A stretch of 4,254 nucleotides of DNA from a virus (lineage: Duplodnaviria > Heunggongvirae > Uroviricota > Caudoviricetes): IMG/VR virus record IMGVR_UViG_2537561712_000020, one strand, 5' to 3'. Under the pieces are notes generated by a model that saw only the letters and a program-made list of their open reading frames with translations, was not told the DNA's origin and did not search any database. Every line of letters starts with the position of its first letter. The first letter of the stretch is position 1. The translations under genes and the position numbers were made by a program. Of the stretch, positions 563 to 4,254 are shown in pieces.

Positions 563-1024
563 TCAGACAAAACCGGCCGCCTTCCGGCGCTCATATTCCT
601 GTTTCAGCAATTCAATTGGCGTTGGCCCTGGCGGGCGTTTGGGTGCTGCCAGTTGTCGCCGGACTGGCGGAACACTGAGGCCATTACCAACATGCTTTGC
701 CCATTTCGTCAGCTGCCTTTCCACAAGCCGTTTTAACTCCCCTTCGGTCATCTGGCGCTCAATCCCCTTTGAACGCATCTCGAGGCAAATGTGGTACAGC
801 ACCGGCTGTGGCCACGGGTATTTATCACTCCCGTCGTACCGCCAGGATTCATTCCTCCAGCGACGGTACTCCTCCATCACGGCATCCACCGTCAGGCCAA
901 ATGGATTTGCCCCGCTCTCCGAAATCAACGCCACAAACTCAGCCAGATCCGGAGGCCACGTTTCACCCGCCCGGCAGCGGTCCATGCACTGACGGCAGAC
1001 CTGCCGGATTTGCTGTTCAGTCAT
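563..1024 (-). CDS. Replication protein P-like (putative replicative-helicase loader); start codon uncertain
   Basis: ORF-track frame 563..1228. The C-terminal two-thirds resemble lambda P as I recall it (EQQIRQV, YPW motif, [17 protein letters not shown] near the C-terminus). The start is placed at ATG 1024-1022 because on the minus strand it forms ATGACTGA with the TGA stop (1019-1017) of the upstream initiator gene, a classic coupling arrangement. Alternative in-frame starts are ATG 1105-1103 (GGGA about 5 nt upstream) and ATG 1228-1226, which would overlap the upstream gene by 88 or 212 nt. Confidence 0.6.
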
Positions 1025-2057
1025 CGCGCCAATCTGAGCAATCCAGAGCTTCGAAGGTGCGGCCCCGTTCTTCTGGGTCCAGCGGTTCGAATACACCTCC
1101 CCCATGAGTTCCCACAGCTTCCAGGCCGTTTCCGTTGCTGATAAATCCGTTTTCACGTTCCCACTGTTCACGTGCTGCCCGAATTTCCTGAACTGCCCGT
1201 GATGCGGTGCCACCTGGTGCTGCTGCATGGTTTACCCCTTTGCTGACTGGTTTAACCTGCGCCCTGACGTGATTTACGTGACGGGCGAATTTCTGCTCCC
1301 ACTGAATCTGCGTAAACACTTTCCCCTCCGCTGCCCAGTAGTCCCGGAAGGCGGCAAGTTCAGCAGGTGTAAATTCTGTCTCCGGCAAAGCCATCCCCCA
1401 CAACGCAGCCCGTCGTCGAAAATCCCGTGACGGATACCAGCTATCGCTCATCGGGAATTTTCCGATGGGTTCGCTCAGGCCATACAGGAATACAGGGGGG
1501 GCTGCCTGTAACGACAAAACTTCCTGCTCACTGGTCGGAGCACTCTCGCGTGCGTTATGTGTGGGGTTTAGATCTTTGGGTTCCTTTGGGTTCCGTGATC
1601 CGTTTTTGGGTGTCTTTGATGGAAAATTTGGGTGTCTTTGGTTATTTTCCATGCAGCTAAGAGTTCTGTTTTTGGGTCTGTTTTGTGCTGAAACATAACC
1701 ATTTTCGGTACTGTTTTTATTAACAGCACCAATTTTACCCACCTTTAAAGACTCCCGTTTTTGGGTGTATTCAGGCTCGGCAACACTTTCTTCTACACCG
1801 ATAAGTCGGTACACCACAATTTGCTTTGTTCTGCCTTTTCTCTCACCGGTATCAACAATTAACCCAATCTCCATCAGGTGTCGTAAGCTGTCCTGCACAG
1901 TCTTTTTGTTCAGTTCCGTTACTTCTGCCAGTGCAGATACAGACGGGTATGCACACAAATCGGCACCGCACATATCAGCAAGCCAGGTCAATACTGACTT
2001 ACTGGATGAACTGCCGGTTTTCACCTTTTTAGCCCATCGTAGTGCATCGATACTCAT
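1017..2057 (-). CDS. Phage replication initiator / replisome organizer (lambda O analogue): N-terminal HTH DNA-binding domain, repeat-encoded Pro/Lys-rich linker, C-terminal DnaT-like region
   Basis: ORF-track frame 1017..2132. Start preferred at ATG 2057-2055 (MSIDALRWAKK...), preceded by AGGGGGG; the ATG at 2132 has no comparable signal. The N-terminus (KSVLTWLADMCGADLCAYPSVSALAEVTELNKKTVQDSLRHLMEIGLI) matches the pattern of replisome-organizer N-terminal HTH domains. The middle is low-complexity (PKNGSRNPKEPKDLNP) and is encoded by the repeat array. The C-terminal part (FTPAELAAFRDYWAAEGKVFTQIQWEQKFARHV) resembles DnaT-type C-terminal domains from memory. Overlaps the YdaT-like stop by 29 nt. 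Confidence 0.75.
   Translation of the reverse strand: MSIDALRWAKKVKTGSSSSKSVLTWLADMCGADLCAYPSVSALAEVTELNKKTVQDSLRHLMEIGLIVDTGERKGRTKQIVVYRLIGVEESVAEPEYTQKRESLKVGKIGAVNKNSTENGYVSAQNRPKNRTLSCMENNQRHPNFPSKTPKNGSRNPKEPKDLNPTHNARESAPTSEQEVLSLQAAPPVFLYGLSEPIGKFPMSDSWYPSRDFRRRAALWGMALPETEFTPAELAAFRDYWAAEGKVFTQIQWEQKFARHVNHVRAQVKPVSKGVNHAAAPGGTASRAVQEIRAAREQWERENGFISNGNGLEAVGTHGGGVFEPLDPEERGRTFEALDCSDWRDD
1564..1776. repeat. Phased direct-repeat (iteron-like) array plus AT-rich patch inside the initiator gene; candidate origin of replication
   Basis: Plus-strand TTTGGGT at starts 1575, 1585, 1605, 1627, 1671 and 1760, with spacings of 10, 20, 22, 44 and 89 bp. An exact 14-mer TTTGGGTGTCTTTG occurs at 1605-1618 and 1627-1640; related units are at 1669-1685 and 1757-1770. 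Positions 1690-1750 are about 68 percent AT. In lambda the origin lies inside gene O with iterons followed by an AT-rich segment. Confidence 0.6.
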
Positions 2058-2580
2058 ACGCCCCCCTGGCAGACATTTGTTTATCTGCAAAGTAATATTG
2101 GTATTGCTGACGATACGCGTGCTTGAAAGCAATAGCTTTTTCTATAAGCTCGTCAGTCTCACGTTCCACAACAACTGGATCCGCAAAAAGCAGCCCGGAC
2201 TCCACCACATCGCCATATTCTTTGTTTAACCCGGCGATCATGTACGTAATGCTTTTTCCGTCAGTAATTTCACAATACAATCTGAAATCGCTGATCCGGA
2301 TAGCCTCCATAATTGCCGGAATCAGCGCCGTGAATTTGTCACGCTTATCTCTGGTGTCGATAGCTTTCCAGCGTTCGAATATCTTCACCCGGTTAACGCC
2401 CAGCGCCCGTTGATCAACCTCGCCATCATTAAACGTGACGCGTTGAACATCGATGTTCGGGCGTTCTTTCAGAGCCCAGAATGCTTCCGTGATTAATATC
2501 GTCGCCTGCTCCTGTGTCATTCCTGGTCGGCATACCCAGGTATCCAGAGCCTCACAAACCTGTTCAGTGGTGATTTTCAT
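2029..2580 (-). CDS. YdaT-family protein (proposed CII-like regulator; earlier described as a prophage toxin)
   Basis: 182-codon ORF with ATG at 2580-2578. N-terminus MKITTEQVCEAL and the internal segment KFTALIPAIMEAI resemble Rac-prophage YdaT as I recall it. Lies immediately downstream of the Cro-like gene (17-nt overlap), the conserved ydaS-ydaT arrangement. Family assignment is from memory, not a search. Confidence 0.65.
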   Translation of the reverse strand: MKITTEQVCEALDTWVCRPGMTQEQATILITEAFWALKERPNIDVQRVTFNDGEVDQRALGVNRVKIFERWKAIDTRDKRDKFTALIPAIMEAIRISDFRLYCEITDGKSITYMIAGLNKEYGDVVESGLLFADPVVVERETDELIEKAIAFKHAYRQQYQYYFADKQMSARGAYEYRCTTMG

Positions 2581-2791
2581 TGTTCAACCGCCCCGCCCGC
2601 TTTGCCTTACGATATTCGTCATAAACTTTGGGGTCGTACTGAAGTTCCCCGCCGGATGCCTCTTGCAGGCGCATCGCGCGACCTTCAGGAACCAGTTCCC
2701 CCCATGCAGCAACGCTTGCCAGCCTAACTCCTGCGACATTGGCAAGCTTTGTTTTGCTGCCAAAAAACGCTATAGCATCAATTTTCAACAT
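2564..2791 (-). CDS. dicC: Cro-like HTH regulator of the DicC/YdaS family
   Basis: 75 aa; ATG at 2791-2789, AAGGG about 7 nt upstream. HTH-like segment GSKTKLANVAGVRLASVAAW. C-terminal half (LVPEGRAMRLQEASGGELQYDPKVYDEYRK...RLNNENH) matches my recollection of E. coli DicC. Divergent from the repressor gene across a 76-bp operator region. Confidence 0.8.
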   Translation of the reverse strand: MLKIDAIAFFGSKTKLANVAGVRLASVAAWGELVPEGRAMRLQEASGGELQYDPKVYDEYRKAKRAGRLNNENHH

Positions 2792-2867
2792 ATCGAAACC
2801 CTTAGATTTTCCTAAGGAAACTAGATCGTAGAGAAACCTAAGTCAAGAAAAATTAGAATTACCTAAT
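2792..2867. promoter_or_regulatory. Divergent control region with two operator-like palindromes (O1 2800-2817, O2 2852-2867) and back-to-back promoter candidates
   Basis: O1 is CCTTAG-ATTTTC-CTAAGG (perfect 6-bp arms). O2 is ATTAG-AATTAC-CTAAT. Minus-strand promoter candidate for the Cro-like gene: -35 TTGACT (plus 2841-2846), 17-bp spacer, -10 TAGTTT (plus 2818-2823), abutting O1. Plus-strand -10 candidate TAGAAT (2854-2859) lies inside O2 and ends 8 nt before the repressor ATG. Confidence 0.6.
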
Positions 2868-3275
2868 ATGAAAAACGAAACCTTCGGTGCTCGCCTCTTA
2901 TACAGGCGAAAAAAATTAAAACTGTCTCAGGCCGCATTAGGTAAGCTGGTCAAAGTGGCTCACGTAACAATTTCTCAATGGGAAAGAGATGAAACACAGC
3001 CAGCGGGGAAGAGATTATTCGCACTGAGCCAGGCGCTTCAGTGCTCGCCGACTTGGCTTCTTTTTGGAGATGAAGATAAGCAACCAGGCGAACCGATCCC
3101 AGATAATCAGCCAGTCAATCTGACAGAAGATCAAAAAGAGTTGCTTCAACTGTTCGACGCACTGCCTGAGTCAGAGCAAAAGGCTCTGTTGTCAGAGATG
3201 CGTGCTCGAGTTGAGAATTTCAACAAACTTTTTGAAGAACTACTCAAAGCTCGCAAAAGAAGCGCAAATAAATAA
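2868..3275 (+). CDS. dicA: DicA-like HTH (XRE-family) repressor; CI analogue with no S24 peptidase domain
   Basis: 135 aa. HTH segment LSQAALGKLVKVAHVTISQWERDE. Segments LFALSQALQCSPTWLLFGDEDKQP and ALPESEQKALLSEMRARVENFNKLFEELLKARKR match E. coli DicA as I remember it, including the 135-aa length. No Shine-Dalgarno sequence upstream of the ATG. Confidence 0.88.
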   Translation: MKNETFGARLLYRRKKLKLSQAALGKLVKVAHVTISQWERDETQPAGKRLFALSQALQCSPTWLLFGDEDKQPGEPIPDNQPVNLTEDQKELLQLFDALPESEQKALLSEMRARVENFNKLFEELLKARKRSANK

Positions 3276-3373
3276 CCCCCCTTTTTTTCGCAACTCTCTG
3301 TAATAAAAAGCACAAACTTTCAAATACTTGTGTTTTTTACATCAAGAAGCTTAGGTTTTTCTACACAAAAAGC

Positions 3374-3403
3374 TTGACCATAACTCTTAGGCTATTCTAA
3401 ATT
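3374..3403 (+). promoter_or_regulatory. Candidate rightward early promoter with embedded operator-like palindrome O3 (3386-3401)
   Basis: -35 TTGACC (3374-3379), 18-bp spacer, -10 TAAATT (3398-3403). O3 is CTTAG-GCTATT-CTAAA, the third copy of the TTAG-N6-CTAA core, sitting between the -35 and -10. Confidence 0.4.
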
Positions 3404-3616
3404 CTACTCATCAAGACACCGCACGGTGTTCTCAGCAAACAGTTCCGCTACCCGGCGTTAAGGGGAAGCAGAGGATTTCTCAGTGGGCGAGTCAAACATC
3501 AGAATGGAAGGCGTCCAGGGATCAGCAAAGAAACAGCGATGGCGCTTTATATTGATATCAGCGCCATTGCCGGACAGGTAAGAGTTATCAGAGCGGTAAC
3601 TAAGCGGTATGCGCCT

Positions 3617-3817
3617 TTACTTCAGAAAGTCTCTGGTGAGTGCACCGAAGATATTGTCAACGATTTCGTCATCGAACTGCGAGGACTCATCTTCAGTTAC
3701 AAGGTGACCACAATTTTTGCAGATGGCTCCCGCGAAACTGTCAGAGCCCTGCGGCTTAAAGGATGTGTCAAAGACTTCGCCACCACATTCTGGGCAAGAA
3801 AACTTGATTGTATTCAT
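3617..3817 (-). CDS. Small zinc-ribbon protein (CxxC-N21-CxxC) with acidic C-terminal tail; function unknown
   Basis: 66 aa from ATG 3817-3815: MNTIKFSCPECGGEVFDTSFKPQGSDSFAGAICKNCGHLVTEDESSQFDDEIVDNIFGALTRDFLK. GAGAGGAAA lies 8 nt upstream of this ATG; the TTG at 3823 used by the ORF track is too close to the SD. Codon usage is ordinary. The overlapping plus-strand 99-aa ORF (3539..3838) has no SD and 7 of its 8 Arg codons are AGA/CGG/CGA, so I treat that one as the antisense shadow. Confidence 0.6.
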   Translation of the reverse strand: MNTIKFSCPECGGEVFDTSFKPQGSDSFAGAICKNCGHLVTEDESSQFDDEIVDNIFGALTRDFLK

Positions 3818-3909
3818 AACCAATTTCCTCTCGAGTAACAGACCCCTCAGAGGATACCACCTCGCCTGACGTGGTTAAAAGCAGGCAACGCTAACCACAA
3901 GGAGCCGAC

Positions 3910-4128
3910 ATGCAGAAACGAGACCCCGTCATCATCGCGCCAGACTATACCGATGATGAACTTTATGAGTGGATGCACCAGAAAATTAATGCAGCGCAGG
4001 ATCTGAAATGGGCCAATGAAGCCAGGGCTAAGCAGGCTGAAAATCTGTCCGCTCTGGAGCAGGATATCACCAATCTGGAAAAAGCAGCGGCATTAAGCAT
4101 TGCCAGAATGATTACATACCCGCGTTAA
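3910..4128 (+). CDS. ydfC: YdfC-like small protein (Qin-prophage type), function unknown
   Basis: 72 aa, MQKRDPVIIAPDYTDDELYEWMHQKINAAQDLKWANEARAKQAENLSALEQDITNLEKAAALSIARMITYPR. AGGAG at 3900-3904 lies 5 nt before the ATG. Length and position downstream of dicA match K-12 ydfC. Symbol assigned from memory and synteny; treat as provisional. Confidence 0.7.
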   Translation: MQKRDPVIIAPDYTDDELYEWMHQKINAAQDLKWANEARAKQAENLSALEQDITNLEKAAALSIARMITYPR

Positions 4129-4254
4129 TAGCTAACCAACGAAGCTAAGGTTGGTAATTAAGGAGTTCTCCACGGGTGAGGTGGAGTGCGTGCGCCGGAC
4201 ACGGGTGAGCATACGGCACTGACAGTTTACTGAAAGGATATTTCTCTGAAAAGT

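Follow-up and report, generated by a model that had tools for sequence, protein, structure and literature searches.

Among lambdoid immunity systems, the closest described relative of the locus presented here is the dicA-dicC-dicBp control region of the Qin (Kim) cryptic prophage of Escherichia coli K-12 (Bejar et al. 1986/1988, as cited in PMC10448788 and PMC3441716). Operators have been described in the dicA-dicC as well as the dicA-dicBp intergenic region, with dicBp being the analogue of lambda PL; the activity of this promoter is derepressed 22-fold by deletion of dicA and is unchanged by deletion of dicC (PMC10448788). The dicBp transcript is cut by RNase III at position 813/814 (PMC10448788). 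DicA binds TTGTTAGTCATAACTAACAA in vivo, where a single base change in the dyad abolishes binding; of three upstream sites expected from the K-12 sequence, however, two (Om and Oa) were not bound by DicA in an in vivo assay (PMC3441716), so that a dyad match alone is no guarantee of occupancy.

The stretch of DNA analysed here (4254 bp in length, hereafter the window) comprises the immunity and replication region of a lambdoid prophage of the DicA/DicC type. From 2500 to 4254 it shares 99.2-99.5% identity with E. coli O157:H7 prophages and with 'PPompW' phage records, in which both regulators are annotated, as dicC and dicA, and dicB, ydfD, an exonuclease gene, xis and int follow downstream. 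Unlike Qin, the window belongs to another prophage, of the O157:H7 'PPompW' type, while the arrangement itself is ordinary, namely the already known dicA/dicBp layout. Its genes, together with a hairpin located after the repressor gene, are the following.

563-1228, minus strand: lambda-P-like gene.
1017-2132, minus strand: O/DnaT-like gene.
2029-2580, minus strand: YdaT/CII-like gene.
2564-2791, minus strand: cro-like gene, dicC homologue (Pfam P22_Cro, E 2.8e-13; annotated dicC).
2868-3275, plus strand: repressor gene, DicA homologue of 135 aa (Pfam HTH_3; annotated dicA in LC567818).
3304-3339, plus strand: AT-rich hairpin with 12-nt arms and A-tract and T-tract flanks (dG -9.6 kcal/mol, z -3.9 on folding).
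3617-3817, minus strand: gene for an ECs_2282-family putative zinc-binding protein (NCBI family), convergent with the promoter described below.
3910-4128, plus strand: ydfC homologue (annotated ydfC; phrog_1744).

As in Qin, a homologous 135-aa repressor devoid of an S24 cleavage domain is accompanied by a divergent cro-like gene, and a conserved transcript leader and ydfC are found downstream. In place of ydfA and ydfB, however, the window harbors a segment with the convergent zinc-ribbon gene. When set against the ydfABC-dicF-dicB order of K-12, ydfC is present in the window and ydfA and ydfB are absent, while the places of dicF and dicB fall past its end, dicB following in near-identical O157 records; an Rfam scan of the whole window (E up to 1) returned no match, whether to DicF or to a nut or put family. 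The end of the window after ydfC resembles K-12 Qin rather than the O157:H7 records, as approximately 635 bp present in the latter (5630-6390 of the O157:H7 locus L001), carrying a 135-aa hypothetical gene and a small minus-strand ORF, are missing around 4128-4254. The hairpin at 3304-3339 is a possible weak intrinsic, maybe bidirectional, terminator insulating the repressor gene from the promoter; it is not called by a strict terminator scan and fails the G+C criterion.

The repressor is 62% identical to K-12 DicA over its full length, with invariant C-terminal motifs. Its HTH domain, at the N-terminus, is joined by a Pro-rich linker to a C-terminal region that is helical and conserved. The N-terminal domain has its closest solved relative in the homologous domain of P22 C2 (PDB 1adr, 2r1j, 3jxb; E about 1e-21), and the cro-like partner likewise belongs to P22_Cro. 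P22 C2, on the other hand, is a protein of 216 aa with an S24 autocleavage domain, its operators differ in sequence and number, and P22 uses a gp24/nut antitermination system, unlike the system of the window. Pfam searches with the repressor retrieve HTH families only, the S24 peptidase domain being absent, and for its C-terminal region no resemblance to that of lambda CI is detectable in Pfam or in the PDB, where matches are confined to the N-terminal domain. The Pro-rich linker and helical C-terminal region would be compatible with pairwise cooperativity of the repressor.

A search of the window for the dyad TTAG-N6-CTAA, allowing at most one mismatch, yields 5 matches in 4254 bp against 1.24 expected. 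Three of them precede the repressor gene, with start positions 2802, 2828 and 2853, and two follow it, with start positions 3351 and 3387. The 4044 bp beyond the two intergenic regions flanking this gene are free of such matches. The predicted operators, to which no strand is assigned, are listed below.

2801-2816 (core 2802-2815): OR3-like predicted operator, CTTAGattttCCTAAG, adjoining the cro-like gene.
2828-2842: OR2-like predicted operator, GTAGagaaacCTAAG, asymmetric, abutting the -35 of the cro-like promoter.
2853-2866: OR1-like predicted operator, TTAGaattacCTAA, the most conserved site across loci.
3350-3364: OL2, predicted operator, CTTAGgtttttCTAC, comprising TTAG-gttttt-CTAC at 3351-3364 (1 mismatch).
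3386-3401: OL1, predicted operator, CTTAG-GCTATT-CTAAA, with the exact dyad core TTAG-gctatt-CTAA at 3387-3400.

A preliminary description of this DNA, in which OL1 was termed O3, placed two operators (O1 and O2) upstream of the repressor gene. Operators are present there, but in the number of three (2802-2815, 2828-2841 and 2853-2866), giving a total of five, and their distances to 3387 (585, 559 and 534 bp) agree with the roughly 530-590 bp that had been estimated. Shuffles of the upstream intergenic region give P <= 5e-5 for this cluster. The predicted -35 of the leftward cro-like promoter is the reverse complement of TTGACT, at 2841-2846, abutting OR2, and colinearity with K-12 dicCp is what would assign this promoter to the cro-like gene. 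The repressor ATG is positioned one base after the OR1-like operator (2853-2866), lacks a Shine-Dalgarno sequence and is preceded by TAGAAT (2854-2859) inside the operator; the proximity of the ATG to OR1, along with TAGAAT within it, suggests a leaderless, PRM-like repressor mRNA. The window in this manner combines a DicA homologue, a divergent cro-like dicC with three dyads in 2792-2867 and a promoter colinear with dicBp.

A similar plan is seen in lambda OL/PL, where the repressor gene also lies between a divergent, three-operator PR/PRM-type region and an outward PL-type promoter. In both systems operators overlap promoter hexamers, and the start codon of the repressor gene comes immediately after the operator nearest to it, which would suit a leaderless mRNA like that from PRM. 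Adjacent upstream sites are 25-26 bp apart in the window compared with 23-24 bp in lambda. Differences are evident at the PL-type promoter, which has two sites rather than three, separated by 34-36 bp and flanking the -35, and which is followed by neither an N gene nor a recognisable nut site. Furthermore, the repressor has no RecA-cleavable C-terminal domain, and the two operator sets are approximately 0.5 kb apart, as opposed to 2.3 kb in lambda.

The elements of the predicted promoter downstream of the repressor gene, which corresponds to dicBp, are as follows.

3367-3371, plus strand: A-tract between OL2 and the -35; an A- or T-tract is found here in all immunity groups.
3374-3379, plus strand: predicted -35 hexamer, TTGACC; same column and hexamer in K-12 Qin, with TTG kept in all loci.
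3398-3403, plus strand: predicted -10 hexamer, TAAATT; TAAATT, TAATCT or TATGCT at the same column in relatives.
3409-3414, plus strand: CATCAA, kept in almost every locus.

The promoter (TTGACC-18-TAAATT) has an 18-bp spacer and 9/12 consensus matches, and the OL1 core at 3387-3400 fills this spacer, its right half overlapping the first bases of the -10. The A-tract is possibly UP-element-like. Transcription would start at A3410, 7 nt past the -10, and by the numbering of the K-12 transcript, +1 would be no more than about 6 nt away from the corresponding A. The K-12 Qin sequence after dicA, tgTTAGctatagCATAcaaaatcacTTGACCgatatgTTAGtcatggCTAAtcttgtttgCATCAAC, when anchored on CATCAA, aligns to 3329-3414 of the window free of gaps. 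The K-12 promoter reads TTGACC-gatatg-TTAGtcatggCTAA-tcttgtttg-CATCAA, OL1 being colinear with TTAGtcatggCTAA. Common to the two are the -35 TTGACC, an identical 30 bp of distance from the -35 to ATCAA, a spacer dyad overlapping the -10 with the core TTAG-N6-CTAA, and, upstream by about 35 bp, a second and weaker dyad, while the flanks and centres of the operators differ (cTTAG...CTAAg in the window, gTTAG...CTAAc in Qin). The two hexamers, O3, both AAGCTT copies (3347-3352 and 3370-3375) and TTAG-N6-CTAC all lie where the preliminary description had put them.

Promoter-like hexamer pairs are not enriched over shuffles (3 found against 1.9 expected in 1.75 kb). The hexamer match is thus insignificant alone, and the case for a promoter relies on conservation and on homology to dicBp. 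It could be argued in the same vein that intergenic DNA this rich in A and T has produced the dyad between the two hexamers by chance and that there is no real promoter, as the region is of 34% G+C and dinucleotide shuffles restricted to the AT-rich downstream intergenic region give a P of only about 0.009 for at least one exact dyad. The same shuffles give P of about 0.009 for at least two dyads with at most one mismatch. Against such an explanation, all five dyads are confined to the two control regions and the promoter is homologous to the characterised dicBp; the comparison of relatives bears on it further.

DicA-type loci were sampled from reference genomes (Pantoea, Enterobacter, Erwinia, E. 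ruysiae, E. albertii, Citrobacter and Yersinia), with further loci drawn from phage records and viral contigs. The positions and spacing of the sites are kept in more than 150 loci, spread over Escherichia, Citrobacter, Enterobacter, Pantoea, Erwinia and Yersinia. In all loci with enough flank, the layout 3' of the repressor gene consists of a dyad, a short A/T-tract, TTGnnn and 5-6 variable bp, continuing with a dyad that overlaps TAAATT, TAATCT or TATGCT, then 5-6 bp and CATCAA. A set of 46 distinct promoters whose repressors have the recognition helix of the window shows conservation in OL2, the -35, OL1/-10 and the start region with CATCAA, and the 5-6 bp from the -35 to OL1 are freely variable. 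The distances are the following.

Repressor ATG to OR1: 15-16 bp (related loci).
OR1 to OR2: 25 bp (related loci).
OR1 to OR3: 49-51 bp (related loci).
OL1 to OL2: 34-36 bp (all groups).
Predicted start to OL1: 23-24 bp (related loci).

Three immunity groups are distinguishable by recognition helix and dyad.

Helix VAHVTISQWERD (K-12: ISHVSVSQWERG), in the window and Qin: dyad TTAG-N6-CTAA.
Helix VSGSSISLWESD, in the phage HannyBb group: dyad TTGAG-N4-CTCAA.
Helix KSSVSVFKWENG, in the Cronobacter phage phiES15 group: dyad TAAC-N4-GTTA.

Each group carries its own dyad at three sites before the repressor ATG and at two in the downstream promoter, and at those five positions none of the dyads of the other groups is found in its loci. 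This co-variation of dyad and recognition helix is strong comparative evidence and provides the strongest argument for a real operator. Since the dyad changes with the recognition helix, being swapped in heteroimmune loci while its position and spacing are kept in more than 150 loci of six genera, the predicted operator appears to be real and chance does not explain the pattern; a fortuitous dyad in a spurious promoter is barely conceivable. The colinearity with dicBp, the geometry of these loci and the dyad/helix co-variation in three groups all uphold the earlier proposal of a third operator copy inside a PL-equivalent promoter. It is accordingly a repressor-operated promoter of the dicBp type that we consider very likely, with the repressor recognising the five predicted dyads, OL1 and OL2 among them at the PL-analogue promoter.

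OL2 had been regarded as a degenerate fourth site (3351-3364). Its odd CTAC half is kept throughout the immunity group of the window, while the site is a perfect dyad in loci of E. ruysiae, E. albertii and Citrobacter, and it matches 2828-2842, on the other side of the repressor gene, in reverse complement at 14/15 positions (93%). Its conservation, the perfect dyads of relatives and this reverse-complement twin indicate that 3350-3364 is a genuine second predicted operator flanking the -35, which bears out the earlier suggestion, asymmetric half-site included. The conserved asymmetry (GTAG/CTAC half-site) of 2828-2842 and 3350-3364 suggests graded or lower affinity for the repressor, or may reflect a preference of the Cro-like protein.

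OL2 also lies within a repeat to which the preliminary description had drawn attention.

3347-3375, no strand assigned: interrupted inverted repeat AAGCTT-agg-TTTTT-ctacac-AAAAAGCTT, overlapping the -35.

The HindIII-site repeat exists and does overlap the -35, and might for that reason be taken for a functional element in itself, for example a hairpin or the site of a second protein controlling the -35. Of 44 distinct promoters from the immunity group of the window, nevertheless, only 3 have both AAGCTT arms, and of 40 from the other groups none has them, close relatives having aaactt, aatctt or aacctt instead of AAGCTT. The repeat therefore reduces to the T-rich centre of OL2, the A-tract preceding the -35 and two nonconserved AAGCTT hexamers, so that of the earlier observation the presence and position stand and the repeat itself is lineage-specific and incidental. 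A function of its own is highly improbable.

The predicted operators point to a mechanism in which the 135-aa repressor would recognise TTAG-N6-CTAA at three sites in the divergent repressor/cro control region and at two in a sigma-70-type promoter. Transcription from this PL analogue would be directed outward from the repressor gene and into the ydfC...dicB early operon. With a repressor dimer seated on OL1, the spacer and the beginning of the -10 would be covered and RNA polymerase excluded, and such steric occlusion at OL1 appears to be the best-supported mechanism. OL2 probably adds occupancy, either through cooperativity with OL1 or by blocking upstream contacts of the polymerase; its centre is located 36 bp upstream of that of OL1, approximately 3.4 helical turns, which is not obviously a cooperative phasing. 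The sites, their restriction to the two control regions, their rigid geometry, their co-variation with the helix and the homology to dicBp are observed; from these we infer binding by the window's own repressor, the start site, occlusion and any cooperativity or looping.

The protein occupying OL1 deserves separate consideration. Lambda CI and Cro share operators, and in the window a P22_Cro-family gene is encoded divergently from the repressor, raising the alternative that OL1 (3387-3400) is used mainly by the Cro-like DicC or is shared between DicC and the DicA-like repressor. The asymmetric sites at 2828-2842 and 3350-3364, whose odd half is kept, could reflect the preference of a second protein, and deletion of dicC lowers spontaneous induction, making DicC part of the dicBp switch (PMC10448788). 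However, it is deletion of dicA that derepresses K-12 dicBp (22-fold), that of dicC leaving it unchanged (PMC10448788), and the dyad co-varies with the recognition helix of the repressor, the protein for which this comparison was made. A principal or shared role of DicC at OL1 is somewhat unlikely, and repression by the DicA-like protein remains the preferred reading.

A further alternative, put forward as speculation in the preliminary description, is that repressor bound at both operator sets loops the DNA over its own gene, much like the lambda OL-OR octamer, and that this loop is needed for tight repression or autoregulation. There are several sites on both sides of the repressor gene, 534-585 bp apart, a near-identical asymmetric site is present in both regions in inverted orientation, and the conserved C-terminal helical region of this two-domain repressor, joined by a Pro-rich linker, could mediate oligomerisation. 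That region is, however, without detectable lambda CI C-terminal similarity. In relatives OR1 and OL1 are separated by 480-564 bp, with scattered helical phase, but since loops of this size tolerate phase variation, the scatter is weak evidence which neither supports nor excludes a loop. A required loop is on balance rather unlikely.

Downstream of the promoter, the first well-supported plus-strand gene of the early operon within the window is the ydfC homologue (3910-4128). The plus-strand ORF 3539-3838, annotated in RefSeq/GenBank, is doubtful as first gene of the operon and probably spurious, as it overlaps the conserved minus-strand zinc-ribbon gene; it has no Pfam match, and its only PHROG match is a family of the same annotation. 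The minus-strand gene at 3617-3817 has homologues of 60-70% identity in Citrobacter, Klebsiella and Enterobacter in which CPEC...CxxCGH is invariant, and two phage records have three amino-acid changes in the plus frame (3539-3838) and none in the minus frame (3617-3817). In LC567818, an extra A after 3489 fuses ORF 3539-3838 to a GTG start at 3483. In Citrobacter, an ECs_2282-family gene is found in a prophage region also carrying S24-type CI repressors, on the strand opposite to the repressor gene, and so convergent with a PL reading in the direction of the repressor. Given its position on the minus strand between the promoter and ydfC, the PL-type transcript would run antisense through this moron-like gene (3617-3817) before reaching ydfC. 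Both the doubtful first plus-strand ORF and the convergent gene in the path of the transcript were counted against the promoter-operon reading.

Directly after the promoter, the transcript would begin with a conserved structured leader, the elements of which are listed below.

3410-3464, plus strand: leader RNA, predicted to form a hairpin, a single-stranded stretch and an H-type pseudoknot.
3416-3429, plus strand: predicted 5' hairpin ACACC-GCAC-GGTGT with a 5-bp stem.
3431-3445, plus strand: single-stranded stretch CUCAGCAAACAGUUC, almost invariant.
3446-3449 with 3454-3457, plus strand: predicted pseudoknot stem 1, CGCU with GGCG.
3451-3453 with 3462-3464, plus strand: predicted pseudoknot stem 2, CCC with GGG.

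The leader alignment was guided by a covariance model built on stem 2, with stem 1 left out of the model; a MAFFT version was dropped, its gaps being misplaced around the hairpin and stem 2. The stem 2 model finds exactly one copy per DicA-type locus, always directly after the promoter. In the model-guided alignment pairing holds in 98% of cells, compared with 35-47% when the partners are slid by 1-3 columns, and 18 cells have double-sided changes. The outer pair of stem 2 occurs as C-G, G-C and A-U and the inner as C-G, U-G, U-A and G-C, while stem 1, though absent from the model, changes from C-G to A-U in three sequences. A loose leader pattern applied to viral contigs returned mostly chance matches, of which the covariance model kept 33 copies; the one whose context was checked (L224) is downstream of another DicA-type repressor and does not widen the known distribution.

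The leader, which makes up the first 55 nt of the predicted transcript, is kept in Escherichia, Citrobacter, Enterobacter, Pantoea and Erwinia irrespective of the downstream gene: K-12 has ydfA at this place, other loci have different genes, and Citrobacter has no gene close by. Owing to this variation, a purely translational role for a single gene is unlikely, and a role at the level of the transcript, in stability, processing or antitermination, is possible. In the Citrobacter DicA-type locus L010 (2080-2135), a boxA-like CGCTCTTTAACAA comes after the leader, then a convergent 175-aa zinc-finger-like ORF; CGCTCTTTAACAA was not seen in other loci. The put-type RNA of HK022 and HK639 has approximately 70 nt and two long stem-loops just downstream of PL. 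A putL-like identity was considered for the leader and rejected, one 5-bp hairpin and a small pseudoknot being different from two long stem-loops, and the leader model gave no match in HK639, including its annotated putL-like RNA. Our literature search retrieved no paper describing the element. We tentatively raise the idea, rather unlikely as it stands, that the leader is a cis-acting RNA element, so far undescribed, of those lambdoid prophages that are of the DicA type and lack N. Factor-independent antitermination or transcript protection as its function would fit both its location immediately behind the PL analogue and the lack of N and nut. If true, the element would be comparable in function, not in structure, to the HK022 put RNA.

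The comparison generalises the Qin model to five operators in fixed geometry with three recognisable specificities, an outcome useful for annotation though not surprising. The pseudoknotted leader is the one nearby feature which may be new and could open a new question. For the organism, the predictions mean that a prophage of the O157:H7 type would keep a dicB-type early operon under the control of a repressor switch resembling that of Qin; cell-division inhibitors are among the products of this operon, as characterised in K-12. The operator set would furthermore enable prediction of immunity and cross-repression among the several DicA paralogues of a single genome.
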